DNA of 64,000 nucleotides from Catajapyx aquilonaris (taxonomy: Eukaryota). Both the position numbers and the translations under genes were made by a program. Numbering within the stretch: the stretch's first letter is position 1; the number at the start of each line of letters is the position of its first letter. Under the pieces are notes generated by a model. The model was not told the origin of the DNA. It did no database searches and saw nothing but the letters and a program-made list of their open reading frames with translations. This document shows, one piece after another, positions 3,022 through 53,280 of the stretch. The stretch is from positions 124,001 through 188,000 of the forward strand of contig JYFJ02000166.1 in the NCBI GenBank assembly GCA_000934665.2, written 5' to 3'.

Positions 3022-3121
3022 GATCCACAACTTCAGGGAGCACTTGAGAGCCGAGGCGGCTGGAGAGGCCCAGAGTCTGCTGGAGAATCGGACGTGGGAA
3101 GCCTTATCTGCAGAGGATAGG
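3022..3121 (+). CDS. Exon, first half of WHIM1-like motif (IHNFREHLRAEAAGEAQSLLENRTWEALSAEDR)
   Basis: Acceptor ctcgttttccag|, donor |gtaagt. Enters in phase 2 (upstream exon not found), exits in phase 0. Confidence 0.8.
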
Positions 3122-6100
3122 GTAAGTGAAGCAAGGGGGGGAAGATGGGAGAGGAGGTGGGGAGGTAGAGATGGAACCCGAAGGCAACAAGTCCCTGGCC
3201 GAACTCGAGCACTATTTTTGCTTCGGGGCCGGCGAGCTCCTTGATCAATCAGGAACGTAGTAGAAGAAGCCACGGTAGTAAACATGGGGGCGGAGGTTGG
3301 ATGTGCAGAACTCAACGGGAACCTGGATAAGCACGGACTATTCCGGCTATTTTTACACAGAAATCAGAAGCTGCTCGGGGAGAGACGCGTTTCTTGGAAT
3401 TAGCGGACGTTGCCGTGAGGTTTTCTCAAGATGGTCGTTGTTGTTGGGCAGGGCAATTGTACTTGCGGAGTGGCAGAGGGAGTCAGGGATAAGTTGTACA
3501 TATTTCTGGAAGTATGACAGTAATCGGTGACGTGCGGAAAGTGATTACACACGGCTTGCTGGCTGGCAGCGAAGAGGCTGCTAAGTTGTAAAGTGAAATG
3601 TTGTGCGAGTTCTAGTAGGTGATTTAATTTCTGACAACTTCTTTTAATATTTATGACAAATCACACTGCTATAATACAATGCGGTGCACTGCCCAAGTTT
3701 CTAGTTGAAGGAGAGGCGTTCAGAAAATTTATGGCTTGTTTACCCGAGCAACCAGCAACAGTCTCGACCAGAGATATGCGGCCATGATTGTTGGTTGCTG
3801 CAGGGAATAATTTGCAGCCTCTTCATCTCTCTCCTTCGGGGCTTGAGCACTGCACCACCCTATATAAAGCGCTATTAGCAAGAACCGTGTTGGAATTAGC
3901 ACCTAAGCTATATCTGTTAACCTCAGGAGTCAGTTGGGAAGGATTCCACTCAATCACCCTGTGTCTGGGCCTATTTTGTGACCAGCTCTCAGTGGACGTC
4001 GTTGGCAGCGGATCCAGGCTCCTTCACTGGAAGGAGTGACGACGTCAGTGACAGTGAGTTGTCACGCAACAATAAAAGTGTCACTAGTCGTATGCTGTAT
4101 GAGAGTTTAAGCCTCCGCAGATGAGGAGAGAAGTAAAGCAGAAGTCGTCGCAGACCTCGCCTTCTTCTTTTTTTGTGCCAAAGCGCACAGCTTCTCTTTG
4201 CCTTTCCGCCGAGTTTATTTTAGTCGAAGCTTATTCTGGGAGCCCCTTCCGAAGTAGAACTAGCTAGAATATTGGAAAAGGAGTCGTGCCATTACCACGT
4301 GGGCAGATGCGACAGAGAAAGTGGTAGCAGTGTTCCCCTTTCTGTTCCTCGAGAGAAGAGGACACGAGTGACAGCCAAGGTGGGCCTTATCCACGTGCTT
4401 TTGTGGCCCACATGTGGCCGATCGTTAGCATGCGCTGGGTTTCTGCTGTCTTGTCCCTATGCTGGCCTAGCCTCACTCTAATCCAGGGGGGTCTATTTTG
4501 CCCCCGGTGACGCGGGCGGAAGTTAGCAAAATATTCGCGTTGTGTTGCATCTCCTGGGAGTTGTTGGCCAATGTAAAAATGCCAAAGCATTGCCAAATGT
4601 CTGACGGTTTGGTATCGCAGAAATATCCTGGAATAATTAGGCAGCGGGCTGCGCGAGTTTTTCCGCTGGTTTATTTGGCGGAGGGATATGTATCCACATT
4701 GGCACCGTATTTATGGAGTTGGCTTTGTGCATTGACTGTGCAGGTATAACATTGCCAAGAAACACGCAGTCAACAAGGTTCTTACTTTCGTTACTAGCAT
4801 GAAATATAACATTATTAAGTTGTTTGCAATAATTTTGCCTGTAATCTTTTTGAGATAAAACACGAGGAGAATTGTTAATTCCATTGTAATTCCGTTTAAT
4901 TCAAATGTGTTTGTGTTAGAAAACAGTGCCATTGAATCGCGTGGATTTGCGATTTAAATATTTCAGTTCAGTGAAGTGCGTGGCTCGCACGGCTAGCAAA
5001 CGTTGTACAGCAGGCTGAACAGTATAGCTATTTCACAGCAAGGAAACGGACCTCTGTATGTTTTGGCCGGGACACCGCTTCCAGTATAGGCCAATAATGC
5101 CATGTTACATTACAGTCGTCACACACAATTAACTTCTCTGGCAACGTGCATTTGACAAGAATTTGCACACACTGTGGCATTTGGAATAAAAAAAAGGGAG
5201 TCGAGCTGTCCCTCTGCATCGAAGACAGATGTTTATCCAGTGGAAGGAATTGAGCCAATTATAATTTGCGCAGCTTTTTTTGTGTGTGTGATGGCGGGGA
5301 GCAGTTTACATTTTTTAACAGCCCGCACCCTCCAATTCCCGAAAAAAAGGAGGGTCGCTCTAAAACCAGCGACGCATCATCAGAAAATGAAACCAGTGTA
5401 AACAGAATTCCGTGTTGTTGACTCCAACAGCAATTAATCGTGTACATTTACTCAAACGAGAGGCCTGGCGGGTTCAAAGCCGTGTTGTGCTTTGCATCCA
5501 AACATTTGGATGTCAAAATGACAACAAATCAACTTGTGTCACTCTCCGAAGAAGGCAAGCAAACTGTGGTTCCCGTGCAGTGCTTGTGGTCGCTGTATGT
5601 GTAAGCCACTAAACTCGTCATCCAGCTGTGATTGTCTCATGCAGGCAAGCACAAAATGCTGGATAAAAATTGCGCCGCTGGTGTCGATGAACCAGTGGCA
5701 GAATCACCACTGCCAGTTATTTTAGCCAACAGAATTAATTGTAATATATCATGCATAAATTTGAAGATTAAGCTACTTGACACTACTTGAAAAGGTATGA
5801 TCTAAAGATTTTTTCTTTCTTTCGGCAGGTAGTGGTGCTGAAGTGGTTGTCTGACCGAGTGTTAGATGAGAAAGGAGAGGATCTGAAGGAGCATCTGGAG
5901 CAGTGGTGGCGCCCCGATGACATGGTAGGGTCAACATAAAAGAATGGCATAATTCCAATGGATGAGGGCCATAATCCTCCAAACCACGAGACTGTTTTAC
6001 AAAGCACGTTCGCTCTTGTTTCGACAGTTTCTTTGACCCCCTGCCGTACTCCTGCAGGCACAGTAGCTGTTACTCTAATTCGGAATTAAGGCTAACTCAT

Positions 6101-9100
6101 GGTGAATTTGTAGGTTTCGGGACTATAGATATGCGCGGACGTACTTTTTTGAATGGCTCCCAATTCAGCGCCTATCTTTGTTGTTATTGCTTGTGGTGCT
6201 TCCGGCCCGGGATTATTTAGTGGAATGGCCATTACTCAAGGCTTGCTCGCTTTCGTCGCCTGTGTAGATGGTTGTAACTGCGATCCTTGCAAGCTACTTT
6301 TGGCTATAACAGTGCCCAGCAACTCCTCCCAACCTCGTGCATGGATGGAGAAGAAGGCAGTCTGTTGGATACAAGGTAGAGTAGAACCACGCTTCATGGT
6401 GTATGGAGTGCTGGAACACGGAATTCCCCTTATGAATTTGATGTGGAGAGAGCACATCACATAATAGATTTTAGCTTCGGTGGTGTTGGGCTTCCCAAAA
6501 TTGCAGCCTTAATTCGATGTTGTCCATTTGCACATTATAGTCCGTTACTTGCATTCCTGGTCTCTAAACGATGACAGTTACAGATTTTAGAATCGAGGAA
6601 GTAATTAATAAGGGGGGCTATTTGGCGTCTAGGAGAATGGAATATTTGGCACGGTTGAAGCATCGGTGGAGCATTTTGCTGGGTTCATCCAGTGCGGTGG
6701 TAGACCATTCAGAATGCTTCTGGGTCCATCCCAAAAGATAGCGTCGCAAATGCGATGTTGTCCGGCAGAACACCAAAGTAGACCTCGTTTAGTAGTGTTT
6801 TAGTGTTCCGGGAGTTTCAGAAAGCCCCCACACAACTGGCAGTATTGGCTTGTCATTTGGCTGGAATAAAGCGAGTGGGCAGCTGCGACTCTGACAGAAA
6901 TTGCGCTGTTCTAGGTGCCATAGTTTTCAGAGAATAAAATAGGAGACCAAATGAACCTCGTATATTTACTCCTTGAGGCTGTCCCTGGAGACTGCTGTCC
7001 TTTCGTTTTAAAAATCAATACGTAAGGTTTTTTTTTGGGGGGGGTGGAGCTAGAATGAGGTCAATAGGAACTTACTTGTGTGCATGAAATATCTGCGGAA
7101 AGTGGGAGTTATGACGACAAGAAGGAATTCAGTAGCAGGTAGACAAGAAACTGCTTAAGTGTTGTGAATATTCACGTCACATGTTGTGGCATTGGAAGGC
7201 GTAAAAACAGTGCCTCCTACATCATTTGTTGGTTTTTTAAAAAGTTGTTGCTTTGCATAAGGGGCAGGGTGCTTTCGAACCAGCCGTTAGGTTTCGAATG
7301 ATAAATTAATGTAGGATGGGTGCCAGTTCAGATCTTAATTGGAACTGAAAATATTTATGATTAATGCAAGGGTCGCTTTGTACGTTTTGGCTGCGGTTAT
7401 GTAGGAGAGAAAGGGGATTTGGGAAGGAAAATGAGGGGAGAAATGTGCGTGGTCCTGGCGATGTCGCATTTGGATGTGGGTTGCTCCATCGAACATGCCT
7501 TTTGTGGTCCGGCAACAAACCAACTAATGAAAGCTTCCGCCGTTTTCGCAGCCCTTTGGCCATTTCATCTGATCTGCCCAAAGGGCCTTTTCGAGGGGGG
7601 CATCCGGCGCTCAAGAGGATCCTTCTTCCAAGCAAATGGGCAGCGATCCAAAATATTTCGCAAGGGATTCTGCGGGTGCCAAATTAATACCCCCCCCCCC
7701 CCTTCCCCACCAGTCTTATTATGTCCATTGGGGTCTCAACGTTTGCATCAGATACGTTGTGTATGCTCATGACCCGGGTGTGATTAGCATGTTGGAACCA
7801 GTTCTGCCGAGTTGAGGGGGCCTGTCAGGAGTAGGTGTGATATGCCTCAACGGTATGACCGTAACTGCCGGAAACTGTTGCAGCTGGTAAAGGGCAGTGT
7901 ACGTGAAAGAGTACGGATGGTGATGAATCGAGGGCATCGTGGGCCGAAAAGGTTGCGCGGTTACCGAAGGTGTGTAATTACGCATCCCATCTGCCGCAGG
8001 TGCCGTTACATGTTAGTCTCCTTGGTACTAGATTTTTTCCTTCCTTCACTCATTTTTTTTATCTCTTCGTCACCCACCCACCCAACGCCCCCATTGCGAC
8101 GTCCGAAATCCTAACGGGTTGTTGTATCATCACAGATAGATGGAAGGGGGCGATACGTTGAAATATGGCGATAACGGTGCCCATGTTTTAATCGTGGCCG
8201 CGAGTTCATTCCTCAGGTCTGACCCCGGATTAAAAATAGGTTAAAACCACGCCAGGACGGGACCTTATCGGTGCAACGTAGCCGGTTGTCGTGACACAGA
8301 TTAGCGTCTCATCCTGCCATTTGTTAACCATCTTTTCGAGAGTGCGTACAGAAGCACGTGTAGGACACGGACAAACGGCATGTTTCCGCGAAACCCCGCG
8401 TGTGCAGGATGATCACCACGGGTTTTTCTGGGCGGTAACATACGATGGGTGTGTAATCTGACGACCTTGTCGAGCACGGGTACTGGAAAAAAAGGGTTGG
8501 GTGTGTGTGTGTATGTGTGTTGTGTTTTAAAAGAGAGTAGGGGGGTAGTCGGTGGGAGTTGGTGGGGAGGCAATGTTCCGGGCAGTTTTGGGACGATCAC
8601 GCTAACTGTTGCAAATCATGCACTAGCGCCCAGGGGCAAAGGCATGAGGCTTCTCGGGGAGTCGTGTCCCAGGCGTTGGCATGCAAGCGGGGTGGCGTTT
8701 GCCAACCCTCAGACCGATTGCGGTTACTACCACGAGTCCCCAGGATTTTTACGCGTTGGTAATTGTTATTAGCATAAAGCCACTGGCGGCAGGAAGCTAA
8801 CCGAATCGAACCTGCGTCATATACCTGGCGCCCAAATTTGAAATATGTGCGTGTGGGGAATATTCAGGCATAAAACCGCGGTTTTTAAGAGGCAGGTGCC
8901 ACCCCCCTCCATGTGGCTGTCTTGAATGGGAGCCGAGAAGGCGAGTGTCATGGACTAATTGAGAAAGAATGAGTTAATTGTAGCGTGGCGGGAAGGCCCC
9001 GGATAGGAAAAAAAGAGAAAGAAAGACGAGAGAGATTGATGGAAATCGGGCGGCAGGTGGGCCTTAAAGCAGCGACTGGCCCTGCTGAGTGCGCAGTTCA

Positions 9101-12100
9101 CCCGCCCAGAAAGATGGCCGCAAAAAGCCCAGGAGGAAATCAATGCCCCGATCGGTGGGAGCCCCGCGGCGAAAACACTACTATACTGACCTGTGTTATT
9201 TCATTTGTCTGCCCTGCAGCAGGGTGGTGGGTGTCTCGTATTCCTCAATCGGACCGCCCCCTGAATTCACTCCTTAAACGGATCCCCAATTTTGGGTGAC
9301 AAGCGAGCAGGCTCTTGTTCGATAGTGGCCTTCTCTTATTTTCACATGTCCTTTTTTTGAAGTAGTTACATGCCATTTCGTGGATTTAAAAAACATGAAA
9401 AAAAGCACAGCTCTTCCGCATGGCTGTTTTGTTCTTTTCCTCTGAAATTTTGTTTTGCCCCCTTCACGTGTAGGTAATACTCTTGCACACATTCACTGTA
9501 TACATATGAAATGCATCACTATTGTTTCTTTATAGTTTGAGTAGTGTGGAGATAAGCGACTGGAGTTGGATTGCTGAGTGTGTATGTCTACTACTCTAGC
9601 CCGCACCCCTCACCTTCTGCCATGTAGTCCACTCTACTTCCTGTATCCTCTTTTTTTTCCCCTCCCTGGAGCTAAACCAGCTTCGAGTATCGTGTGGGAG
9701 GGGGTCACAAGTTCATTTCACTAGTTTTGAGCAGTGAAAGTGATAGATTTTTTTCTTGTGGCTCGCTACCTATATTCCCAGTACCTGCTGAGTGGTCCCT
9801 CGATGTGCCAGTTTCATTGCTTCCTATTTGATCCTTCCTGACCATATACCGGCCTTTCCAACAAGGGCCATCCCAGCAGCTAGATTACATATTTGACGGC
9901 CCCTGTAGTTACACCCTGTATTTGAGTTGCAGGGGAAGTCTTGCAAACACTTGCCTTGTTCGGAACAAAAGGAGCGCATTGTCGCTTTTCTTTACATTTT
10001 TTGGGGGGGTCGTTGTTGCTGCTGTGTCCGAGCACTGGGTTGACTAATGCAATAGTTTTGAAAAGCCTTGCCTGCATCAGAATACCTAGGCATAGAGATG
10101 ACATGGCAGCTGCTGCGGAATGACTGCGAGGAAAACTCATTCTCCCTGAGAGATTCCCCTCCCCTGTTGGGTATCAGAATGAAAATCTTTTGTAGGGGGG
10201 TGGGATGTAAGGGGGAAGAAGCCAAATAATTGCCCCCAGGGATGTGCGGGAGAACAGGCACGACCAAATCCCCCTTCCCGCCCCTGCTGCTGCAGCACCT
10301 TCCCCCCGACTGTCTTTGGCTCTAGTTTGTTTCACTGTGCTAGAAACCAAGCAAGTCTTAAAGAAACACTTCCGTTGCACATGTCGACCTGCATCAGTAG
10401 CTTGGACTTCCGCTTCTCCCAACCTGGCAACCTGCTCCGATCGGCCAAGGGAAACGGATTTAATTACATGAAGTGCAAAAGCCCATTTAAAACACTGGTT
10501 GTTGTAATTTGTGGAAGTTATAAGCGCGTGAAAAATACTTGGTGGTGTGTTCCGTACAGTAGCCCAAAGTCTTTTGTTAAAAGTTCAAAGGCGGTAGATT
10601 CACTTTGTATCGCAGCATTAATTCCGCGATGAAATTGTGCAGACCGGAGCGTAAATTGCAGGGCCTTTTTTTTCTACAAAAATAAAAGGCAAATGCTTAG
10701 CATTTCAGGCAGTGTTTTAATACTAGGAGAATTAATTTTAATCTGCAGTGAAAATTCTAGAGCGGGTTTATCGCAGGTTCGTGCTATGCGGACGTATCGA
10801 CACACAGTACATGAACTTTGGAGGAATTTATTAGAGACTGGCGCGAAAATCGAGCTCGGAAGCGTGTACTTGGCGATGTGTGGGTGATGCTCATTGGCTG
10901 GACTGTCACAGCGCAGCGGGGGAAACACATGAGAAACAATTATTGTGTTACGTCTGCCTGATTGGACAATCTGTCCGCAGCCTGCCAATGAAAGTCGACC
11001 TTACAGCCTACTTTGCCGAATTGATGCTCCCAATGCTTTTTGCCGAGGGACACTTTTGGTTGTGTCCTACTAGATTCCCGCTTCAGAATACACTCTTAAA
11101 ACTGGGTTGAAGCTATCTGTTGCTGCGTGTCTTACTCTGAACCAAATGCCAATTCCTGTAGCTGGCTATATGAGCAACCTCAACCCAACAGCAGTAGTTT
11201 GGAACCAGTCGTAACGCCTCCATGATGAGAAATCCTTGGGCTTTTGATTTCCTTGTTGACCATAGCACCATACTCAATCCCGTATTAAATGTCGTTCCTT
11301 GGACACTCAGCACATGGCCTCCTTCCTTCCCCCCTCTTGCCATGTTTTGTAGAGCTCTGTTTTGGCCCTCCCTGTTTCTGGTTTGTGGTCCCAACACCCA
11401 AGATCAGTGCCTACTACACCAGTAGTCGTGTACTATTGTTCCTGTCGTATTCCGTTTCAGCGCGGGCTATGTGCGGGTCAAGACGCCTTCAATAATGTGT
11501 ACTGGTATTTGGATGGTGAGTCCAAGTGCACTTTTCCTGTCACAATGTTGCTGACAACCCTCAATTCCTCTCCTTCCCTCCCACGTTTTTCCAAACGCTG
11601 CTTTTTAAGTACATCTCTCTCTTTTTTTTATATATTTCTTTTTCACTTCTTCTAATTTTTGCTCTGATGTGGAGCCCGCGGGGGGAGAAGGCGAGCAATT
11701 ATTACTTTTCTCTCACCTGCGATGCGCATTTGCATGCTTCTCTCTATTTTTTTTTTCTTTGTGTAGACTCCTGGCCCACTTCCACTCTGCTCATTTTGGT
11801 GTTGTTTTTTGCCAATTTTCGGCCTTGAGTGTCATCAGTTGCTGCGTTCTGTTTGTTTCCTTCTTCTTTTCTTCTGAGATATCGAGCAGGAAGCTTTAAG
11901 TAAAAACTGCTATCGGTTTTAGGCCGGATATCCTAATTATAACACGTGGTGACGGCATAACACGCAGGGAAGGTTGGGAGAAGATATGTATGAGAGGATT
12001 TTTTTGTTGTTGTGGTTAACTACCCACTAATATCTTGTGTGCTGTGACTACTCCTTTCCTTGCTCTGGTGGGGATTCGCAGGCAGAAAAAAAGCACGTGG

Positions 12101-15100
12101 GATGATCGTTTTGCGAGATTACTGCGACTTTATCAGTCATGTCGATCAGAGATGAGTGTGTGCACTCCATCAGAAAATTGGGGAAGTACGTGCAAATGCG
12201 AAAAAGCGACTTGCGTAAAATTTAGTTTTCAACAGGGCAGTGGAATCCTAAATTACTGCTCTGTCTGAGGTTGTGGTGGCTGTTTAACGTGGTCGGTGTC
12301 GCTGCAAAATTTGAGTAATTGCGAGTATACGATGTACCGCATTGTGTGAACTGATGTTATTGACACGAACCTTCTTCAGCATGCTGCTGATGCAAAGAGA
12401 CGCTTGGATGCGGCACGAATTATCGCAATATTCTGCCACAGACTTATAGTCTACAGGCTACTGATAGAATTCGACATGGCAAGGTAGTGGAAGATCTCCT
12501 TCGAGTGACCTTTTGCTTGGTGTCAAGGAGTCCGAACTAATGAATGGGCTGAAACAAGTCATGTTAAATCACGTGTAAATGCCATCGCTCGAGGAATACA
12601 GTGCACACTCGGAGAGGAAACGTGGGGGGTTTCCATACGAAGTCATGTGAATGCCAGTCAGTGCTGGGCATGAAGTCAAAATCTCTATAATGGAAACCTC
12701 AAAAATGATACTGTACTATAATTTTGGTCAAACCATGTGTGGATATGTGTGGAGTTCTGAGGTTGACACATTGTTTACATTAATGAGGCGTTTATGTGGA
12801 AACCAAAGTTTTTCAGATGTACGCCATTGGCTTGGATTGGGGATTTTTCCAGACTTACATATGCACCTAAAATTAAACTGCATTTTGAACATTCATAATT
12901 GAGGGCGTATGGAAATCTGTCAGTGAGAATCCATAGATGCAAGGAAATCCCTGTGGACACATGTTTTCCTCGAGTGATTTTTTCCATGAATTGATCGCAC
13001 ATTGCAAATCCTGCAACATACAATAATTGCTATTGACCTTGTCAAATTATCAGTGAGATTTTGGGATATAAAAAAATTAGGAATAGTCAGAGAGAAACAT
13101 GCAATCCCAAAGGGGATCGCTTGACGATCATCACTGATAAAGTCTTGGCTTTAGAAGGAGGGGACGAGGGCTGAGGCGTGGGGGTGACGACGTATCTTCT
13201 TGGGTGTTTCAGATCTGCGTTTGTACCGAGAGAACAACGTGAAGAAGGCCAGCAGGAGAGACTGGGAGTGCGTCTGCGTGACCTACCAAGACTGGGTGTC
13301 GTTCCTCAAGCAGTTCCGAAAGACAACGAACGTGCAAGAGCGCGAGCTGTACCAATACCTGAACGAGGACCTGTTTCCCTTGATAGAGGGCCAACTGAAG
13401 GTGAGATTTGTGCGAATAAGGAATTGGCGCTGCAACGGTCGATCATTTCCTGTTGTCGTCCTTGGTGCCTTGCATTCTTGCATCCGAATTAATATTTATA
13501 TAAAAAAAGAAAATAGGAAGGAAAGAAAAAAACCGGTGGCATTAACTTTGCTGCAATACCTGTTCCGCGTGGTGTTCTGGCTACTGCAATGCCAAAATGC
13601 TGTGGCACATGTCGTTTTGGGGTGAGTGATGTGCAACGATAATTACTGTCCACAGGGGGTCGTCGTCCCCTGCCCACTGAGGTCCGGCCGGTAGTCGTGG
13701 TGACAGACGTTTGTTTGGAGAAGCCGGACCTCGAAGCAACCCTAATTGCCCCATTACAATCATATAGGTTCGCAATCTGGCCTGTTGAAGGAAATTTCCA
13801 AACAAAGATGGGGAGCGTTGCTGCCAATCCGCGGAAATTTGTAGCGAATAAAAAAGAAATTGATTTCCGAGAACCGAGCCACCGCGTGACACAGAAAAAC
13901 AACTTAATTGGTCCATGCCCCCAGAGTGACATAACCTGCTGAGGGACAAGATATGCTGTGATTTGATCAGTTGTCTGCCTTTAGGAGCTGCGGGGCCGTC
14001 CAGGAGACACCGGCGGCAACAACCACTTGGGCAACAATAGCGGCCTGCCGGATAACGAGGAGCTGGTTCGACGGGAGCAAGAGGAGCTGGCCACCATGAT
14101 CAAGGAGAGCAAGGAGGCGGCGGCCAAGCGGGACAAGAAGAGCAGCAGCGGAGGAGGAGGGGGCGGCGGGGGCGGCGTGACGATCAAGAGCGAGCCGACG
14201 GAGGGCGTCGCCCCGGAGGTGACGCCGAAGGAAGAGCCGGTCCTGAACGGTGAGACGGAGGGTCCTCCGAGTGTGGGCGGAAGCAGTGCCAACAGCAGTA
14301 GTGGTGGTAGTGTGGGTGGGAATGGTGGGTCCGGAGGGAGCACCAACAGCGGCGGCGGAGGGAACGCGGCGACTGTGTCCAACTGTGTGGTGAACAGTGT
14401 GAGTGGTGGCGGTACCGGTGGTGTGAGTGGGTCGGGCAGTAACAGCAATGGCAGTAACAGTGGCGGTGCGACGGGGCCCGGAAGCGCCCCTGCCACCAAT
14501 GCCAACAATGGTGAGGTGAAAGGGGGCAGTGTTGGCGCCGCGTGTGCCAAGAATGGGAGTGCAGGGAGTGGTGGGAGTGGATCGACGGGAGGGTTCGGAT
14601 CCGCCACGCCCTGTTCTGTCGCAGACAACTGTGCCATCGATAGCTTACAAGACGGTGAGTACTATACTTTGCATGCAACCTTATCCCTACAGCGTAGCAT
14701 TTGGGTGTTACAACCCTCAAGTGTGCAGTAACAGCAAAAGTCGGTGCCAACAGAATTCCCGGATGTTGTTACACATTAGGGATGATTAATTTGCACTTTT
14801 GGGTTGGTACTGTAGGGCCTGTCAACCATAGTGGGATTTTCAGCGGTGTGCTAAAACTTGCTTGACAGTGGTGTACAAACTCTTGCCACTGGAAATCAGG
14901 TTTAACCACCTGTTTTGCTCCAGGTGGAAATGGGACCCAGAGCGCGTTGAGAGACTTCATATACCTTCAGTGACAATTAAACGCGCCCATGCTCGCTAGT
15001 GAATAGTATAACCGGCAATAGCACCCACAGCATATTTATGCACTAAATTACAGTAAAAATATTTGATCTGTACTAAAAGTGAACAAATGTATCGAGGAAT

Positions 15101-18100
15101 CAGAAAGCACTTTTGAGGGGTCTGATATAAAAAATGGCCAAGTCAACTAGGAAAAACGGGCAGCTCAGGAAATGTGCAATTAATACCCAATGACATTAAA
15201 ATACATAATTGCTGCACGTATTAGTGCCCCCCCCCCCNCCCCCCCCCCCACATGGACTTGGCCTTTTTAAATCTCATCAGATCCGTCATATAGACGTATC
15301 AGCTAGTGTGATTGCTTGATTTGGTTTACTAACCGCCAGAGGTTTCTTGTCAAGTAGTCGGTCTCCAACTGACTTTTGTTGTCAAGTAGGATTACTAGGA
15401 AGGGGCCACGTTTGACATGACTGTAACCGTGACAAAACGGCGATGGCTGGTTTGATATGTTGGGATTATAATGCAAAGTGTGTGTCTGTCCAACGCGGCG
15501 GAAGTGTTCCCCTGTCGTGGGTTCTCGGAAACGAGAGAGAGAGAGAGAGAGAGAGAAGAAAAAAACATTGAAGACGAAGGCGAGGAGCCCTAAAGACAAA
15601 GGGAGCCCATCTGGAAGCTCTCAAGTTATTCCATTGGTTTTGGGGAGGCCCAGACATGCTAACCCAGTGAGCGGAGCGTCCGTCTGGCGGATATCGCGTG
15701 GGAAATGGCCGTGGAGCCGCGTAATTTCCTCGGGAACTATCTTCTCAAGTTGGCTGTTGGGAGCTAATTCCAAAACTTCGCGTCTCCGAGAGAGCGAGAG
15801 AGAAAGACCGCCGCCCGAGGTTAGAGTTTGGGATCTTCCAAGGAGATGAACGAGGATGGAAACAGTTTCAATTTCGACTCCCTTTATAGTTTCGGAAATG
15901 AAATCACCGTCGCCTGTGATATCTGCGGAGATTGGCCGGGCACGTTTATGCGAATTATTATCACTGCATGCTGCGGATTACTGGCAGGCGAGACCTTCCC
16001 TTATTCTTTTTCTTATAGGTTTCCCAAAAGGTGCAGTCGAGGGTAGAAAATGTGCCGGCACCGTAATTTTTACAGTGACGTGGTTAGATGCAATTATCGA
16101 CGCAATTTAGATATCGTGGAGATACGGCGGTTTGCAGCTAGAGCCGGGCACCAGAAGCACATGTAACGGTTTGCTGCACTACCTTGAAGGAGTGAAGGCA
16201 AAATTGCGAATGATTGACAGGCTATCTGGTGCGTGAAGGAAAAGAAATGGTGGCGCTCTGTCTTTGCCCCTGGAGTTTATACGACTGGGTAAACAGGACG
16301 GGTTCACGGGTTGCGTGTTTGGATGAACGGGTATGGAGAAGTGTAGGGTGATTCAGCGAACATCTAGTCAGGGGGGCGTACATAACTTTAAAAGGAAAGA
16401 GACAATGCAGGGTGTCACTGACCATGTGTCACTGCTTAAATTGAGTGACGTCCACATAATTTATAGCCATGATTTGCATAGACAACGTGGCTTCGAATGT
16501 TGGAAAGCTGCATTTTTAAAATGAAGAAAATTGATCTACAGAAAAATGTCTTCCGGAGAACTAGGGATTTGTCAGCAACTAGCAAATATTATTCGTATGT
16601 AAAGGTGCTGTTACTGTTGAATGTAGGCTATACGTTAGCCGTTGGGAGGGTATCACGGAAACACCCGGCCCACTGTAATAATATGTCAATTCAGGCGCTT
16701 GGTGGGATATTGTCCGCTGATGGCAGGTTCCACACTATTTGAATGCAAAGTGGGTGCAAAAAAGATAGCCTGAGGTAACAAACTGTGTCACATTACATGT
16801 AATACAGGCACGGCGGCACAATAACCGATCACTCGTCACCAACCGCCAGCGAATACAAAAACTTGGAGGCTCAATAAACGCCGTTTCATATTGATCATTG
16901 ACCGGTGACGCAATCGGCGCTGTGTTTTCTGTCGTGACGATACGTTATCACTCATGGAGTGTTTCTATATGCAGAGGGCGACCGGCACGTGGTGATTATC
17001 CGTCCGTCCACCGATAAACACCGGGCATGCAATCGTCATCCGCTGTTTTGGTTTTCACAGTATTTACCAACAACCGAGTGGAAGTGGGGAGGTTGCAGAC
17101 TAGTGATATGGAGGCCAGAAAGTGGAAACTATCGATCTGGTATTGGCACGCCGAGACTGCTGGCAGAGGCCACCGCCGCATTGTTTCCACTCTCGAGACC
17201 TGATACAGCCGTTAGGTTTTTTTTTCTTCTTTTCCGTGCTTTCGGTGATGGGATGCACGGCGCTGCTTGGTCGCATCTGATGAATTTTTTCCTCGGGTCA
17301 AGTAACTGACCACAGCCGTTCGAATATCGCGACCAACTTGTGTTCTTTAAAAAATAAACAGGGCGCGGAATTGTTTGCGGTGTAGGTGTTGACGTTGGTT
17401 CACAATAGAAGATGGAATTTTCTAAAAGAGTACTTAAATTGAAGGATAGCACAGCACTAACAGGTGCATTAGATCGCATTGTTATTGTGTAACTTTGGCG
17501 TGTCATCCACATCGCGCTTATCAACCGACTAGGCTTCCACGGGTGTCTGCCCATTGTTAACTATTTTTTTTTCTTTCTTCTTCCTCTCCTGCTCTCACAT
17601 CACGTGAGTGGCAGGATAATATCCATTCACAAGGAGACTTCGTTACGGAGTTTTAGTTCTCGTGGAAAAAGAACTCGGACTGCTTGCTGCTGCTCGCTGT
17701 GAAGGAGAATGGTGGTAGCCACTTCTGCAGGTGCATCAGTTTCCGCGTGAATTTGACACGCTTTTGTCGGATTTCTGCCAGGATTTGGTATGCGCCAATT
17801 TGAGTTTACTGGAGTCGCGATGTTTAGGGGAAAGGACCCCCGAGACAATCGTCCCACACGATGCCGTCGTTGTTCCTGGTTCTTGGACCTAGTTCTTGGA
17901 TAACTAACTGGGTTGGTCTTGCGGCACCGCCACCACCCCGTTGATGCCCCGTCCCCGTCAGACAAATCTCTCCTGGTTGAAATGGCAAAGTTCGGACGTG
18001 CCCCCCCCCCNCCCCCCCCCCCCTCAATCCTCCCCCCTCGAAGGTCGGTTTCCTTGGTGACGTTGTCAGTCCTTCTTCCCAAAATGAGGAATGGCCCTCA

Positions 18101-21100
18101 GGAGTGTCGCGTGAAAGGAGAAGCCTTCTTGGCGTGCCTCTGAGTGGAGGAACAAACGAGTTAATGGACGCCGCGACCTTGTGAACTCAGGAGGAGGAAG
18201 TCGGGGCCCCTGCCTTATGCACACTACAATATTTTTTTTATCGTCAAATTTTTCTAATGTGCCTGCCCCCCCTCCTATCCGTATGAAAAATCCGGTTTAG
18301 CTTGGGCCGCCTCCCACGCCCTGCCCGGAACGGAGTGCTATCAATGCTAGAGACTGCATCATTAGCATTGCTTGGGAGTCAATAGCCCAAACCAGTTTTC
18401 AGCACGGGGCACGGGGTGGCTGGAGGGGGAGTTTGGTTGGTTGGTTGGGGGGAGAAAGAAGGAGTTGGTGGAGGGGAGAGAAAAGAGAGGCCATTATTTT
18501 GTGCTGCGGGTTAGGATTCGGCGGCGGCGTCACTTGGGTAGCTAGCTGGCTGGGGCTCTTGCTTTTCGGTGGTTTGTCCTGCCAGCCAGCCAGCGGCCTC
18601 TGAAGAAAGGCGGAGGAAACGGCCCTTCCTGCAGCTGGAAGCACGTTTTGAGGCCACCAGGATTGAGTCGGTTCCAAGTGGCGGAGGTGGAAGGATGTGT
18701 CGTGGTCAACAAAGTGCTGCCACATGGGCCAGGAGGAGGAAGAGGTGGAGGTGTGTGTCCGTGTTGTGTGTTGACGACCGATGTTTTTGTGGTTGTGGAT
18801 CTGGATGATGGTGTGCTGTGGCCGCTGTGGAATGTGCGGGGAAAGAAGGGGTTGGCAATCAGGTAGAGCGGGAATCCAGGAGCGACGCAGAAATACCGTT
18901 GTGGATGGATCGTTGGGGGGGAGAGAAAAACGGACGCCGTTGTGAGCAACAGTTGGTGCCACGTATCGGAGGTGTCGGAAGAAAATCAGTGGAAGCGACC
19001 TGCAAATGCATTGAAATAATTTTTTTTAGGTCGTTCACTCTCCTGTCAGAGTCCAAATGATCCTGCGTGGAGTCCCCTCTTTTGTTTTGGAAACGCTCGG
19101 AAAATATGTAGTCCAAGGATAAGTCGGGGTAGATGAGAAGCTCACGGAGAATTTTCTCCAGGCGGCTTGTATAGCCGCGATAAACTCGTCAATTTTGATA
19201 CCAAGTCGGGGAAACGGGGACGTTTTTAAAAAGACCCCTCTTTTTATGCACGGGCGCGAGTGTGTGTGTTCAGTGCGGTAAAGGGAAGGTTAAAAGATCA
19301 GGACGGCAGGCACACAACCTTGCCTCAAATTTCGGCCTGTGCCACATTTGAAGTAGAAAGGGGGCATTATCAGGCCAGTGGGGAGGGAGAGGAAAAAGAC
19401 CCCCTCAAGAAGAAATGGGCAAGAATAATGATCCAAAATTGAGGCGCAAGAAGGAGGGAGGTTGGGTGGGAGGTGGGGAGTAAAAATCTTGAGAGCTGAG
19501 GAATGACTTTCCCCCGCTGCGTTGGCGCTGCAAGGCTCGACCTTTTGTTTCCCGGGCTGATTGGGAAGGCGCCTCCGGAGGAATAGGGTTGCAATAATCT
19601 GTTCCACGTAAGAGAGCACAGGCGGCGTGACTTGGGCCTGTTATCCGGGGTATCAGACAGGGCGGAGTTCTCTCCCACCCCCACCCGACCTGCCAACCCG
19701 CCCTCAACTTCGCCCACTCGTTGCGCATGGTAGCCGCGCAAAACTTGTAACGAGAGACGGTAAAGTTGGGCGGCCCTCTGGTTGAGGTAGTTCATGTCCG
19801 CAGGTTCAGGCCAGGTAAAGCTCCTCGGCCTTGGGGTGCACTACAGGTGGGCCACCCAACCTACAGGGGTGGCTTCCCAGCTTTTATTTTTCTGGGGGTG
19901 TTGGGAGGTCATTTCGCGTGAAAGGTCAATGCTTCGGGAAAATGTACCGTACGTTTCTTTAAACTGTCGCTTCTGGGGCGAAATGTGTTGAGAGGTGTGG
20001 AACATGTCGTGCGTGTGGCGACAGAAATGATTACATACACATGGAAAAGGCATGGGCGCTGGGAATATGGTAAAGCCCTGACAGAAAGGGAGCTCATCTT
20101 TTTGTCCCGCCTCTCAAAAGCGTTCAAATGACAGTTAATGAGCAGAAGCTGCGACCCGGTCCTCCCCCCACGTGTAGCTTCACACAAATGGACTGCGGAA
20201 TAAATAACCCCTCCATCCTCTCCCCCCCAAAAAAGCGACCAGGGTGGGAGCAGATATCCATTTGAACCGGTGAAACCGAACGTGTCCATCGGTAGCGTTC
20301 CCAATTTGATCGGAGCGCATTAGGCACAAAAGGAGTGCAATTGTCCGTGCAGGATCGGAGCGGGACACATAACGCTTGTTTCCGCCATTTGTTTGGGGCA
20401 TGCCAGCATTTTTGGAGATGAATGGCCCCGGTCCTGCCCATCTCTTGTTATTCCTGCTCGGCCGATAAGGGCTTATCCCCCGCCGAAAAAAAAAGTGGTT
20501 CAGGAAATGGCGATGACGGTGACCGGTTGATAATTGCTTGGGTGCCAGCAAGGACGCGGGTTGACAATCGCTTTGGCGGCAGGTGGCGGAGGTCAATCGC
20601 CGGAAGAGGTGAATGGCGGATCCGATCCAGCTCTCAAGAACGTTTACGCGCATTATTGGATTGCGAGAGTGGAAGAAGAAGAAAAAAAAAGATTGGGGGA
20701 GGAAGCCGTGAGCGATCCCTCTTCCACCTCCCCACCCCAAACGATTCAAATCGAGCATGGACTCCGTTTGCAGATCGCGTCAAATCTGATTCCAGTCATT
20801 CAGGATGGGGGGAGATCCCATTTCCACGTGCTTTTCTTGACGGGGAAAGAGCCATTGACCAGGATTCAAAGCTTGGAAAGCTGATCTGTTTGCGAGGATC
20901 TGGCGCGTTTGGAAGTAACGGACGTGGCAGGTTATTTGCTGCTTTGTCGAAAGGGCGTACCAGTTAGGGGTATCAAACTCTGGTGTCATTCAGAGTTGGT
21001 GGAAGACGTTTTCTAAAGTGCTGGGCGGTTGTATCAACTCATCAAGAGGAACTCTCCAGTTACGTCTACATAATCTGAGATTTTTCTCCCTATTTGCTGT

Positions 21101-24100
21101 CATTACTCGGAATGTAATAAACTTTTTTATTTCATGGCCGTTACGTCATGCAAGCATTGTCCCTACTCGAGTTGTTAGTAAGACCATGATGTCATTGTAA
21201 TACCGACAACAGTGAGATTAATGGGAAGTCTTGACACTCATTAACAGTGCGTATAGGTCATTTCTTCTATTCGTACTTTTTGTTGGAGCTTTGTCACTTC
21301 TTACATTGGGATATATCAAAATATCGACCTTTTTGCATGGAGAGGAATAGTGTTGTTTTTCACATTGCATGTAGAAAAATTTATGGATTTTGAGCAAGGT
21401 AACCAGGTGACCTATGCAACGTGTTTGACGCCGCAATGAGTTCCTGTTCCTTGCGATATATGCTAGTCGTAAACAATCAAATAATGACAGCATTCTGACC
21501 GGGCTGTGTCTGGAAGTAACATTTAAAGCGCAGATTACAACGCGCTGAAAACCAATAAATAAAGTGGATCGGCCTTGGCACGGTGCTGCTGACCTCATGC
21601 ATGGTTTACGGTCAGTCATAAGCAATTACTAATTAAATATCGCATTGGGATTTCGTTCTGCCCTCTGGTCAAGAGAAAGGGGACGAGTTCTCCCTGGCCC
21701 CTCTCCATCATACGTGCGACATTTAGCCTGCTGGAATTAATTCCTCCGTGAGTGTCAACACGTCTTTTGGTGGTGTCCGTGTCTCGCGGATTGGTGTGTG
21801 CTACTGGTTCATGCGGACGTAGAAGTCTCCCGGTTCTATAGACCTGCGCTGCAGCACGAGTCCTGTTGTTTTGTTTGTGAGGGTAAATTCTGACGTGGGA
21901 CCGTTAAGTGACCTCAGAGGATGACCAGCGAGGGCAGCGATAAAGGGCTGAAAAGGCGGCTGCAAGTGGAGGGGTGGGTGGGTGGAGAGGGGCTGTTTGC
22001 TTAACCAGCGTGTTAGCCCTTCTTTTGAAGGAGCCGATTCGTCCTACAATAGGGTGTGTATAAACCTGTGAAAGGACCCGACGATTATTCAATGAAACGG
22101 GGCTCGGAATGCGTAGCGTAACATGTTTGTATGCCCTCCGTCGAATTGTGCCCCCGACCTGACACCCTCCCAACCAAATGTGCTCGGGATATCGACTGAT
22201 TCGGTTCACAATTTGGGGTGGGCAAAGAATCGGGTCCAGCATTTTTAGTGGGGGGGTACAATGAGCTGGCGGGATGAATAGGCTGGCTGGTGACCGTTCC
22301 TTGCAGTGTATTGCACAGTATTGAGATCCGATATGTGGAGAATGTGCCGTGTGACAGGTGCATGAGTGACAGCTGGATGTCGGGAGTCGGACCGTGACGT
22401 GTTGACACAAGTTGAAGAGGCGGGTCGATACCATTGTTCATATAGGCTCCGGTACGTGTGGACTTGTGTTTTAGGCCCTGAAAATACCGTGCACACACAC
22501 AGACACCATACACACACACAAAAAAAGGTGGAACGTGCTTCTTTGGCCGATGGGTCTCCGGACTCTGGAATGCAGTGACCATTTTTCTTTTCCACTTTTT
22601 TTCCTCCCCCCCTGGCTCTCCCCCTCAGCTCCTTCGACCCTTCCGTGGCGCTCACAAAAACTGCCCTTGTCTGCCGTGGTTCTCGTAAAGAAGTCGGCGC
22701 CCATTAGCCACTGCGCTGCAATCATTTTTGGTGGTGCTGGTGGTGTATAAGGAGAAGGAAAAACCAAGGAGAGGGCCCATGGGCTTTGGGTCAAACCCTT
22801 GGCTGGAGGGCTCCTCGTGTAGTTCTGGGAAGTCCACCCAGCGCACCACCACCACACTAGACCCAACCACCACTTGCTTTAGCTGGCTGGGGTTGTTTTG
22901 CTGGGAGGAGGAGGAGTTGGTGGCCTCAGGATCTTCTTAAAACTTGCCAGCTCTTGGGGGCTGAAAGCAAGGCAGAGGATTCCTGGCTGTGTGTTTGCTA
23001 GTGCAGGAGTTTTGATTAAGTGCTGAACGTGGATCGAGTGGGTTAGTGGGCAAGAAGTGTGTACATGAAAGGTGCGTGCAGATGCTGTTGCAATTTGTTC
23101 CCCAAGTGTCTTGCTTTTGAACAGCATGATTTTACTGGTACATGTTGTGAGCACAGTTCTCGTGGGGTAATCATGTCAGAATTACAAGACAGTGGTGCTC
23201 ACAGACAGTTATGTATGTACAGTCAAATCGACTTAATTGCAATATGGTTGACCGCTGCAATTACTTGCAAAAGATTGCCAAACTCAGCTCATTACTGCAC
23301 CTCTGGGTTTGTCTGTGTAATCAACTTGGCCTGATAACTGCATAAGTTTGCTGACAAATGGGTGATGCAATTAAGTGGATTTTACTGAGTAGTTCACCAG
23401 AGCTGTGTGTATGATCATTTATCATTACAAGATGGATAGAAAAATTGACCCACAAGCAAGTGGGTTGTGCATTTACTTTGACAAAAATTTTAGTGGTCAT
23501 CACAGCATGGTGAAATGTTGCACTCTAGTCAGATAAAACTACCCTGTAATTGGGTTGTCTCTCTCATTACTGTGCATTTACACATGAATTTCCTTTCATT
23601 GCAGTCAAGCCTTCAGTTGCTGAAAACAGCTTACCAGAGAGTTTACAGTGTACAAATCCGACAAAATCAGAAGACCAAGCCAATAGCAGTGCAAACAATG
23701 AATTTGGTGGTAAGTGGATTAGAAGTCAGCCAGGCGGATACTTGTTTGGAATGAGGCGAGAGCGGTGATTGCAATGTTGTGTTTGTTCCAGTGCCAGATC
23801 CATGCCAAGCCATGTCATCCATGGCAATGGGATCCATGTCGAGTTCCTCGGGCCATCCTCCTGACGGGGTGCAGCCGCTTCCAAGCAACGTCATCAACAA
23901 GCAGCCAGGCACCATGGAGGCACAGTACATGCAGCAGCAGAGTCAAATCTTTGTGTTCAGCACCAAGCGTGCAAACATGGCGGCAGAGTCCGTGCTGCAG
24001 GGTCAATTCCCATCCATCATAGCCTACCACTGCGCCGAGCCTGGGACCAAGAAGTATCTTGAAGTGAGTGTGTGGTGGCGTGGCTCTCAGTGCTTGTGTC

Positions 24101-25234
24101 GCTAACAGGTTTCTTCTCTTCGCCCAGAAACATCCCTTTAAAGTGCAACAGTTCACCAGGCAAAACCCGGCGCAATGGCTCAATACCCTGGCCCAAGTGA
24201 AGCAGAAAGGCGGGTTGGGATCTCTCAAGGGGATGAATCCTCTTGGAGGTCCTGGAAACCTTCCGCCTGGACCCAACAACATTCTTCCTGACTTCCCTGG
24301 TGGACCAGGCATGGGAGGGCCACCTGGAGGCATGGGCTGTTGGAATCAGGTACGATTTGTGTTAAGAGAAAATAGCTCCCCATTGCATGCAAGTTGAAAA
24401 GAATCTCTGGTACTGCATTGAATGCTGACTGTTGTACATTTTCACTTATCTGGAAGAGAAGTGCAAATGTAATGACACAGCCTAGCTCATGATGTGGTTA
24501 GGCATTATTTGTCATTCTTTTATGCTAGGTACAATATTGCCTGAATTAACCCTTAACTACGTAGGTGGGTGAAACACCTTTAACTATGTAGGTGGGGCCT
24601 GAGAGGCTCCAACGGTATATTTAAATTTCTGCTTATCAACTAAATTGTTATATTGGACTTTTCACATACAGAAAGTGCAGTTCAGATCATTAGGCTTCCG
24701 ATAACGTAAAAATCACACGCTGAGTCAGCATATTCCGACAGCATATTCCGACAGGGAAAAATTCTTAATTAAAAGGTTACATCATGCTTGAGCCGCTCAG
24801 TCTTCACCTGCATAGGTAGAGCCAGTATAGAGTCCAGGAGGGACCTGTTCCTCGTTACGAAATTTTTTTAAACCCAACAATAGGGACTAAAAAAAATTTC
24901 TTTCCTTTTCATGCTTAGGAAGGTTTGTCTGACAAAGTCACGGAAGGACAAGGGAAAATAAAATTCGATGAAAAAGTTACATGCGTTTAAATAGTGCTTG
25001 GAGCCTCTCAGGCTCCACCTACGTAGTTAAGGGTTAAGGCATAGGGCGGTTAGCCCCCAGCCTTCCATCTCTGATGTCTCGAGTTCAATTGCTGTATCAG
25101 ACAGAGGAGTTTCTCCTATGGAAATAGCTTCATTGGGTTTCCTGTTTGTTCACATGGATTTTGTCAGTGTTCTCCCCTTTCCTTCAGCAATCAAAATACA
25201 TTGGTGTAATAATAATAATAATAATAATAATAAC

Positions 25235-25278
<44 letters not shown>

Positions 25279-51900: not shown

Positions 51901-53280
51901 GTCTCACGAGTCACGTTTAAGCGGTCTGTTTTTTTTCTAAGAAACGAATAAAACCCCCTTTGCTTTTCTGTGGACCTAAAAGACCTGATTGACGTTTTCT
52001 GGCGCAGTAAACGCCCCCAAATCACGGCTATTCGGTGCCACTTTCACACTTCATGGGTTGTAAACAGAAATACCCGGGGCCTAAGTAGCTTCGCTTTTGT
52101 GTCCCCGATATAAGTACAAAAACGATAAGTATGCATCAAAATTCGTGGAACCTTAAAAGGGTCATCACCAGGGCTTTACACTGAGTAATTGGAGGACGGT
52201 TACATGTAAAGTGGCTCGGGTGTAATTTACTTCAAGTCGACCAGCGGTTGTGCAAAAATAGGCTTGAACATGGAGAATTTTAATAATGAAAGAAGTTGCA
52301 AACCGCTAACTTTCTTGTGGAATCTAATTCTGCAAAATGGTATAACTTCCAAGGATTTCAGGAGCGCTGAACTCGCCCAAAATAGCTCAAGATTATGCGA
52401 AACATACTGTAGCAAATAGCTGCATACAGTACCTTACATCACATATACAAATTTACGGCTGTACTGTTCATACTATATAAACAGCAGGCTGCAATTGCAT
52501 AGTTTGCATATTGCACATGCACAATGTGCACATTACATGTTGTTATGAATTTCACATATTCCAATCCCGCACCTGATTGTACGCTGCACCGAAACAACGG
52601 CCAAAATAAACCCCTATCCGAATTGAACGAGGAAAAAAACAAGATTATATCAACTCGGTTGGAAAGCGACAAAGCGAATATCCGGATTTAATTGACAAAA
52701 ACAGGTACCCACCAGCAGCAGTGGGTGCCTCATAACCTGGGGTCCATTTAACCCAACTAATTCAGCGGATCGGCGCCATCGCAACTAACGCAACGAGGCG
52801 TTTTGATCCAGTTTACTTTTTTTTTTAACGACCATGCATCATCATCATAGCAACGTTGACCTAACAATGCTGTAGGCAGGACATATGATTACACCAAAGT
52901 CCTGCTGAAGTGGCTGAGCTTATTAAACATTATGGTGTCCTTCGACAAGCTCATTTCCTGGACCCATCTGGTCCAAATTGGATCGCTCGGAGTACAAGAA
53001 AAGCATTGCTAGGCAACCCTTCGGACTGTTATACATACAGTCTCGCTCCATCAGGTCAATACCTTGCACTGCACACTGTAGTAGGTACTCAAAATCCTTA
53101 TTAAACTTACGCATGTCTGAGAAGTCGTCGACCAATATAATTTCTTTGAGCGCTTGTTCAGGGGATCGTTCCAGCACGGAATGGACGGTCCTCAGTAACG
53201 TTGACCAGGCTTCGTTGTGAAAGCAGATGATGACCGAGGTGGTGGGCAGCTTCTCGTGGTAACGACCTGGCTTTTTGCAC
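45907..53280 (-). CDS. pgant9: Polypeptide N-acetylgalactosaminyltransferase, pgant9-like (5'-partial); exons 53280-53111, 51490-51326, 49951-49803, 49416-49234, 49156-48971, 48898-48770, [47641-47531 OR 47365-47264], 46276-46145, 46056-45907
   Basis: GT27 motifs [27 protein letters not shown] (DxH), [27 protein letters not shown], plus a ricin-B lectin. [17 protein letters not shown] and [12 protein letters not shown] are characteristic of Drosophila PGANT9. Phases consistent. TM/stem exons not seen in the window. Confidence 0.93.
47264..47365 (-). CDS. pgant9: pgant9 lectin alpha-repeat exon B ([34 protein letters not shown])
   Basis: tttgtttag|...CAG|gtgagt; 102 nt, phase 0-0. Absent from the ORF track. 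Confidence 0.88.
47531..47641 (-). CDS. pgant9: pgant9 lectin alpha-repeat exon A ([37 protein letters not shown])
   Basis: tgtgtag|...CAG|gttggt; 111 nt, phase 0-0. Confidence 0.9.
50601..50951. repeat. Array of CACTC/GAGTG motifs (e.g. cactcaaatcgagtg); probable degenerate non-autonomous DNA transposon in a pgant9 intron
   Basis: Many short inverted copies; right end reads CACTCTAAAA on the minus strand; left terminus unclear. Confidence 0.5.

Follow-up and report, generated by a model that had tools for sequence, protein, structure and literature searches.

Gene Structure of the Locus

The locus considered here raises the question of whether a group of small exons encoding a WHIM-type module, of the kind known from partners of the chromatin remodeler ISWI, and the BCL9/legless sequence located downstream of them are parts of one gene. 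The DNA analyzed (the window, in what follows) is a stretch of 64,000 nt from Catajapyx aquilonaris (GCA_000934665.2, contig JYFJ02000166.1, positions 124,001–188,000 of the forward strand). The window probably holds most of a single gene, a long-form orthologue of BCL9/legless with an N-terminal DDT-WHIM module, and this is the best explanation of the evidence taken as a whole. A preliminary description of the window had proposed four small exons with matching phases, joined in phase 0 from a donor at 13401 to an acceptor at 13984 and followed by a frame open to 30765. The four exons were indeed found, with canonical AG/GT borders, and the longer reading was reproduced as well: nine plus-strand exons, spliced by coordinates with a script, yielded 2102 codons with AG/GT at every border and without internal stops, and the frame runs through the homology domains HD1 and HD2 of BCL9.

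The first four exons encode the module. Exon A (3022–3121), the first base of which finishes a codon begun in an upstream exon, includes both the last part of a helical N-domain and the beginning of the WHIM1 helix (..NRTWEALSAEDR). Exon B (5829–5924), in phase 0 at both ends, carries the WHIM1 helix (VVVLKWLSDRVL..) and the next helix, while exon C (11461–11515), ending in phase 1, contains the start of WSD/WHIM2 with its GxD signature (AGQDAFNNVYWYLD). Exon D (13213–13400; phase 0 end, GT at 13401–13402) encodes the strands DLRLYRE and DWECVCV, as well as a long C-terminal helix of the WHIM3 region (ERELYQYLNEDLFPLIEGQLK). The linker is found in exon E (13985–14654; AG at 13983–13984, GT at 14655–14656, phase 1 end), and consists of the continuation of the last helix, a conserved ..LVRREQEEL..MIKESKE.. 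motif and a Gly/Ser-rich stretch, in this order.

The remaining exons encode the BCL9 part. Exon F (23792–24063), which shares a split Val codon (G + TG) with exon E, contains HD1, the Pygopus-binding homology domain (QIFVFSTKRANMAAESVLQGQFPSIIAYHC), and exon G (24128–24349; phase 0) contains a conserved stretch past HD1 (KHPFKVQQFTRQNPAQWLNTLAQVKQKG). Exon H (25876–26392; phase 1 end) encodes a Gly/Pro/Met-rich low-complexity region, which has only weak matches to low-complexity parts of orthologues. The codon split between exons H and I (G + GC) gives Gly, as in orthologues, and exon I (26576–30765) encodes the beta-catenin-binding domain HD2 (GVKVPDENLTPQQRQHREEQLATLRKMQQMLFPE), the rest of BCL9 with its long disordered tail, the conserved C-terminus and the stop codon.

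According to the available text of PMC5352222, Legless/BCL9 links Pygopus to beta-catenin, the domains named being HD1 and HD2. In exon I, the Pfam family BCL9 (PF11502; HD2) was recognized at residues 12–40 (E-value, 3.4e-18; 65.6 bits against a cut-off of 25), and HD1 is located N-terminal to HD2, as in BCL9/Legless. Over 67 residues, HD1 of exon F shares 94% identity with Ischnura BCL9, and its identity to the stick-insect and Artemia homologues is 72–84%; the identity of exon G to Ischnura is 67% over 39 residues. Exon I aligns to Ischnura residues 651–1904 (E-value, 0) and the alignment reaches window position 30729, so that the conserved C-terminal region is present. Overall, the closest homologues of the protein are those of odonates and Artemia, with about 40% identity over exon I. 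Within exon I, positions 27202–27434 harbor a tandem repeat of a 15-nt unit (15.5 copies, 85% matches), which encodes a repeated GGPMQ pentapeptide.

Profile Evidence for the Module Exons

A profile built from six orthologous N-terminal regions was searched against all six-frame open reading frames (ORFs) of the window. The search recovered exon D with an E-value of 3e-31 (profile positions 161–227), exon B with 2.1e-8 (positions 112–147) and exon C with 3.8e-7 (positions 147–164); exon A, which is weak by itself (E-value, 0.77), matched at positions 76–116 and is colinear with the others. Exons A, B, C and D are thus matched in order along the profile, and the spliced peptide gives a single unbroken match (positions 90–229; 214.4 bits) across the A/B, B/C and C/D junctions. 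Such colinearity of exon matches is far beyond chance.

At the level of single exons, exon B is 66% identical to the BCL9 models of Ischnura and Hetaerina, all 18 residues of exon C are identical to those of odonate BCL9 models, and exon D shows 81% identity to the mayfly and damselfly BCL9 models. Exon E aligns to residues 233–374 of the Ischnura model, immediately past the module (E-value, 1.1e-6), and chelicerate proteins have a related motif (..L.RE.EEL..ML/IKE..) past the module.

Exons A–D encode the last 146 residues of a module of about 230 residues, in which a helical DDT/WHIM1 domain is combined with a small beta sheet bearing the GxD signature of WSD/WHIM2 and with a long helix at the end. 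Profile positions 1–75, corresponding to the DDT part, gave no match in any six-frame ORF of the window, which places the first (DDT) exons upstream of it. A DDT-like ORF piece at about 2722–2770 (CNRVIRYLLRDW; E-value, 7.3), resembling the ARLLRYL helix and preceded by AG, was rejected, as no donor phase-compatible with exon A follows it. This piece is probably a chance match; it could also be a remnant or a mis-read micro-exon.

Identity and Predicted Fold of the Module

Exons A–D encode a WHIM module of the CECR2/RSF1 type, and its nearest named relative is CECR2. This label, which had already been given in the preliminary description, is based on profile matches to CECR2, on hhalign comparison and on a structural match to Ioc3. 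The profile matched proteins named "chromatin remodeling regulator CECR2" (E-value, 1.3e-21) and "cat eye syndrome critical region protein 2" (E-value, 1.6e-21). When the alignment of the BCL9-type modules was compared by hhalign to that of five CECR2-type N-termini, a probability of 99.65% and an E-value of 3.9e-25 were obtained over 215 of the 240 columns. More generally, the tier of matches below the BCL9-type proteins (E-values from 1e-29 to 1e-17) has the same N-terminal region followed by a different domain: 12 of 41 scanned matches carry a bromodomain at about residue 400–550 or later, which is its position in CECR2, and seven of the 41 a PHD finger. Beetle bromodomain proteins and fungal PHD proteins are also named in this tier.

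Individual parts of the module were recognized to various extents. Pfam searches with single exons, which are very short, assigned no family to exons A, B, D, E or to the HD1 exon F. In alignments, the exon A/B region falls opposite the part of CECR2-type proteins that bears WHIM1. Among the six aligned orthologue N-termini, KIAA2026_hel was matched by two (best E-value, 1.3e-7), and Pfam DDT reaches 19 bits in a spider protein (P0007). The GxD signature, which the accessible part of PMC11789628 (citing Aravind and Iyer 2012) describes as that of the WSD/WHIM2 motif, is present in the window as G-Q-D in exon C. Only three columns of the 24-sequence alignment are invariant, G152, D154 and Y160, and G152-x-D154 is the GxD signature. 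The best ESM Atlas clusters carry WHIM1, DDT or WSD on 12–28% of their members, and one of them is named RSF1-like; with scores of 0.84–0.87, under the 0.9 line, these clusters serve as a lead only.

An AlphaFold2 model calculated from the 24-sequence alignment (mean predicted local distance difference test score, 89.2; predicted template modelling score, 0.81) predicts a helical domain and four strands, with a long helix closing the module. In an exhaustive VIA-align search of 48,161 solved chains, the model ranked first with Ioc3 of the yeast ISW1a complex (2y9z_B; Z, 12.4; root-mean-square deviation, 3.8 A; 212 of 233 residues). Ioc3 is the sole match over the whole module, the next rows being to the helical N-domain alone (104–120 residues, Z of 10.6 or less).

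The window gene is not an orthologue of CECR2, since a bromodomain is lacking and the BCL9-type modules form a clade apart from the bromodomain proteins. The preliminary description had noted no bromodomain or PHD exons downstream of the module, and local profiles for these domains likewise found none among the six-frame ORFs (best E-values in the window, 3.8 and 0.085, respectively). The same local profiles matched none of 147 HD1/HD2-bearing proteins, and Pfam scans found no bromodomain in the pieces of the window or in the BCL9-type proteins scanned. The module tree was calculated by FastTree from 123 sequences, that is, 200 matches minus 42 partial and 35 more than 90% identical ones, and its root is arbitrary. 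BCL9-type modules constitute one clade of 24 tips (SH-like support, 0.94), and bromodomain proteins a separate clade of 57 tips (0.89).

Three environmental or run-assembly records (P0037, P0176 and P0177; 345–482 aa) start with MPRRKKQ.., like BCL9-type proteins, and neither HD1 nor HD2 was detected in any of them. In the arbitrarily rooted tree, P0177 is the earliest branch of the BCL9-type module clade, and P0037 has the best Pfam WSD score overall (23 bits against a cut-off of 25.4). These proteins may represent a stand-alone or non-bilaterian form of the module.

The Same Architecture in Other Animals

In other animals, the module is found in one protein with HD1 and HD2. A search with exon D gave five matches among 12 candidates, four of which are BCL9 models with PF11502 (mayfly, damselfly and two of horseshoe crab), the fifth being a centipede fragment. 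The first 230 residues of the damselfly model retrieved 12 proteins, nine of them with precomputed PF11502, from four spiders, a sea spider, a horseshoe crab (two models), two damselflies, a mayfly, a bryozoan and a tapeworm. When the profile was searched against 1.84 billion representative proteins, 894 matches at an E-value of 0.001 or less were obtained, with 351 at 1e-10 or less and 19 at 1e-30 or less. Among the latter, 16 are named and belong to horseshoe crabs, a sea spider, a centipede, a chiton, an annelid, a nemertean, two amphioxus, a bryozoan and seven flukes and tapeworms.

The order module–HD1–HD2 is found within single proteins of the chiton (P0015), annelid (P0016), nemertean (P0017) and amphioxus (P0019), and the three parts occur together in proteins of chelicerates and odonates as well. 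One of the module-bearing amphioxus proteins is the "B-cell CLL/lymphoma 9-like protein" of Branchiostoma belcheri. In short run-assembly contigs, a single open frame likewise joins the module, or the last part of it, to HD1, to HD2 or to both of these: P0020 (988 aa; contig of 3257 nt), P0255 (1761 aa; contig of 6082 nt), which shares a 90% cluster with a tick protein, and the P0054 cluster (1632–1686 aa; contigs of 6.9–8.2 kb), which groups with scorpion BCL9. Because introns are long in the window and in the listed genome contigs, these short contigs are most simply taken to be cDNA-derived. The gene models of many species and the cDNA-like contigs unite the module with HD1 and HD2, in agreement with the proposal that the module exons belong to the BCL9/legless gene, and the suspicion that database gene models might already contain this architecture was confirmed in many species. 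The names under which these proteins are deposited are often misleading, e.g., "collagen alpha-1(I) chain" or "trithorax group protein osa-like", others are listed as "uncharacterized", and one bryozoan fragment is named CECR2 or "WHIM2 domain-containing".

Tachypleus tridentatus has three BCL9 paralogues (P0003, P0004 and P0246), and the module is kept in all three, which argues for selection on it. Whole-genome duplications are known in the horseshoe crab lineage, and the presence of three BCL9 paralogues fits them.

Distribution and Evolution

Searches with the HD1–HD2 region found 155 BCL9 homologues at an E-value of 0.001 or less, 120 of which were listed and scored for the module. The module profile matched 17 of these 120 arthropod homologues, namely those of odonates, a mayfly, spiders, horseshoe crabs (the third paralogue included) and a tick, and two run-assembly contigs; the other 103 had no match. 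No match was obtained in any named neopteran among the 120, i.e., in stick insects, Orthoptera, Hemiptera, Coleoptera, Hymenoptera, Lepidoptera or Diptera, including all listed Drosophila species. Also without a match are Artemia, an ostracod, a millipede, a mite, a partial spider model and 16 rows without a species name. The absences outside insects are weak evidence, since missing 5′ exons in gene models mimic loss. HD1 begins at about residue 140–210 in three models from stick insects and grasshoppers, as opposed to about residue 440–480 in module-bearing proteins.

The preliminary description had stated that characterized BCL9/Lgs proteins carry no such module. This holds for the listed Drosophila homologues, in which the profile found no match. 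Vertebrate BCL9 and BCL9L are not known to carry the module, and no vertebrate is found among the 16 named matches at an E-value of 1e-30 or less. The same description took the window to contain a chimera peculiar to this locus, a view that has given way to that of a widespread long form. This form was probably ancestral to bilaterians and present in the protostome–chordate ancestor, the fly form being derived, and the module was probably lost in neopteran insects such as Drosophila.

Possible Function of the Module and Its Link to ISWI

ISWI partners with a DDT-WHIM module include RSF1 and plant DDT proteins. According to the parts of the literature consulted, CECR2 associates with the ISWI ATPases SNF2L and SNF2H to form CERF (PMC11661176), the structure of Ioc3 was determined in complex with the HAND-SANT-SLIDE part of Isw1 (2Y9Z title; PMC11789628), and the WSD motif was reported to be in contact with linker DNA and SLIDE (PMC11789628). 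By analogy, the BCL9 module might dock to the HAND-SANT-SLIDE end of an ISWI ATPase, to linker DNA, or to both, in the manner of CECR2, ACF1 and Ioc3. The beta-catenin–Pygopus adaptor would then bring a nucleosome-spacing motor to Wnt-responsive enhancers, or be held there by it. The chances that the module docks to ISWI and/or linker DNA at Wnt enhancers appear evenly balanced. It is a more tentative suggestion, falling somewhat short of even chances, that the ancestral bilaterian BCL9 was an ISWI accessory subunit and that, through the CECR2-like module, it formed an ISWI complex of its own, tethered to Pygopus and beta-catenin. If this were true, the Wnt-dependent switching of enhancers would be mechanically coupled to nucleosome spacing, and chelicerates, palaeopteran insects, molluscs, annelids and amphioxus would possess an ISWI complex as yet undescribed. 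Flies and vertebrates, the clades in which BCL9 was characterized, would be those that lost the ISWI link.

A number of observations weigh against a long-form BCL9 with an ISWI-binding DDT-WHIM module. As the DDT part lies outside the window, the full module is deduced from orthologues, and the splice from exon D to exon E in C. aquilonaris is likewise inferred from orthologues alone. The Pfam matches to the orthologue modules are below threshold, both for DDT (PF02791; four of six aligned N-termini, best E-value, 1e-4) and for WHIM1 (PF15612; five of six, best E-value, 6.9e-4). P0020 is the sole scanned BCL9-type protein over the DDT cut-off (22.7 against 22 bits), and Pfam WSD matched none of the BCL9-type proteins scanned. 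With respect to the fold, Foldseek gave no match in the PDB at an E-value of 0.001 or less, a profile search of the sequences of solved structures gave only a chance-level match (E-value, 0.62), and the Z of 12.4 to Ioc3 falls in a range possibly generic for helical models. According to the accessible text of PMC11789628, the GxD signature is dispensable for ISWI binding in the ICOP proteins of Paramecium, and Ioc3 is without the Asp; for these reasons, conservation of GxD is no proof of ISWI binding. The BCL9-type clade is old and apart from CECR2, which counts against the ISWI inference in particular. Finally, fly BCL9 works without the module, so that its core role as an adaptor does not depend on this domain.

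A second explanation is rather unlikely in our view: the module could be a genuine part of BCL9 that does not bind ISWI and has some other role, with linker DNA or nucleosomes alone or with another enhanceosome or chromatin partner, the likeness to ISWI subunits being due to common descent. The helical N-domain is similar, too, to calponin-homology-like domains, among them those of Ndc80 and augmin (Z of 7–10.6 over 104–120 residues), the separation of the BCL9-type clade from that of CECR2 implies that function may have diverged, and a role of GxD in ISWI binding is described as lacking experimental support in the available text of PMC11789628. On the other hand, the ISWI partners that can be named as carriers of the module are CECR2, Ioc3, ACF1 and BAZ1B (the last two according to the same partly available source), and the resemblance extends over the whole module both in Ioc3 (212 of 233 residues) and in CECR2 (215 columns). 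The ISWI link may be regarded as a good hypothesis for the long-form BCL9.

One Gene or Two

The other alternative concerns the gene itself: a small stand-alone DDT-WHIM gene could end past exon D and the BCL9 gene could begin at or past exon E, predictors having fused the two in many genomes. Apart from the comparative origin of the D/E junction at this locus, a separate gene is favored by the frame, which stays open for 75 codons beyond the exon D donor up to a stop at 13623–13625, by an in-frame Met inside exon E, and by the several database models that are partial (Ephemera P0001, Ladona P0192, and Nymphon with 666–717 aa). The open frame past exon D makes an intron-retaining short form possible, which would lack BCL9 and end just past the module.

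On the opposite side, the order module–linker–HD1–HD2 is common to models produced by different pipelines in seven phyla, and recurs in the unbroken ORFs of the short cDNA-like contigs (P0020, P0255 and the P0054 cluster). The D/E junction is in phase and the sequence right after it is conserved; moreover, the last predicted helix of the module (residues 205–232) spans the position of this junction (227/228). The seven short matches at an E-value of 1e-30 or less are either truncated or partial-looking (P0005, P0021, P0027 and P0028) or unnamed (P0014, P0018 and P0024). Given this evidence, two separate genes are highly improbable, and the reading as one long-form BCL9 gene is retained.

In the Ladona fulva model P0192, the equivalent of exon C (..RGLCAGQDAFNNVYWYLDD) is joined directly to the pre-HD1 region, and the equivalents of exons D and E are lacking. 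This is either an incomplete gene model or a module-breaking alternative splice form.

Other Features of the Window

The intron between exons G and H contains a (TAA)n microsatellite of about 30 copies (25207–25295), which gives a poly-Asn ORF in one frame. Two N bases are present in the window, and minus-strand ORFs at about 17627–18186 show X; the N bases (about 17900–18000) correspond to a small gap or ambiguous bases inside the long intron between exons E and F. A neighboring gene on the minus strand, with exons at 49230–50030 and 52923–53387, encodes a glycosyltransferase of family 2 (PF00535; E-values, 4.8e-9 and 7.4e-4), the motif of which we take to resemble that of polypeptide GalNAc-transferases.

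Comparison with Known Systems

No paper describing a module-bearing BCL9 was found in a search judged mostly by titles, most subscription journals and supplements being outside it, and the word ISWI is absent from the Legless/BCL9 scaffolding paper (PMC5352222). Two papers on evolution mention BCL9 nowhere but among their references. Many module-bearing BCL9 proteins are misnamed in databases, which makes their annotation a practical matter.

The N-terminal helical domain of KIAA2026/BRD10 (PF23450) is matched by a bryozoan BCL9-type protein (P0012) with 26.3 bits against a threshold of 27.8, and by a CECR2-type protein (P0061) with up to 41.1 bits. These matches cover only parts of the model, positions 1–60 or 97–142. 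Since BCL9-type and many CECR2-type matches lie near the threshold, PF23450 covers the same DDT-like region.

The closest of the known systems is CECR2, the CERF subunit, which has the same N-terminal module of about 230 residues over its full length, including the DDT-like helices, the WHIM1 helix, the strand region with GxD and the closing helix. The Drosophila homologue of CECR2 is dikar. In CECR2, a bromodomain follows the module, whereas the window gene and the other BCL9-type proteins have HD1 and HD2 there instead and belong to a separate clade. Ioc3 (2Y9Z, chain B), the one member of the DDT-WHIM class with a solved structure, is alike in fold over the whole module, but the identity is only 13%, with no match at the sequence level, and the aligned parts are spread over residues 176–728 with large insertions.

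Drosophila Legless and vertebrate BCL9/BCL9L share HD1, HD2 and the C-terminal conserved stretches with the window gene, and none of the listed Drosophila homologues is matched by the module profile; the two model clades probably carry a reduced BCL9. BCL9/Legless is described as a largely unstructured adaptor, the only known folded contacts of which are short homology domains (HD1 and HD2 in the available text of PMC5352222). Compared with that description, a conserved folded domain of 230 residues, of the type found in ISWI partners, changes the picture of the ancestral role of BCL9, and the module would connect the Wnt enhanceosome physically to ISWI remodeling, in a definite way that is open to testing.

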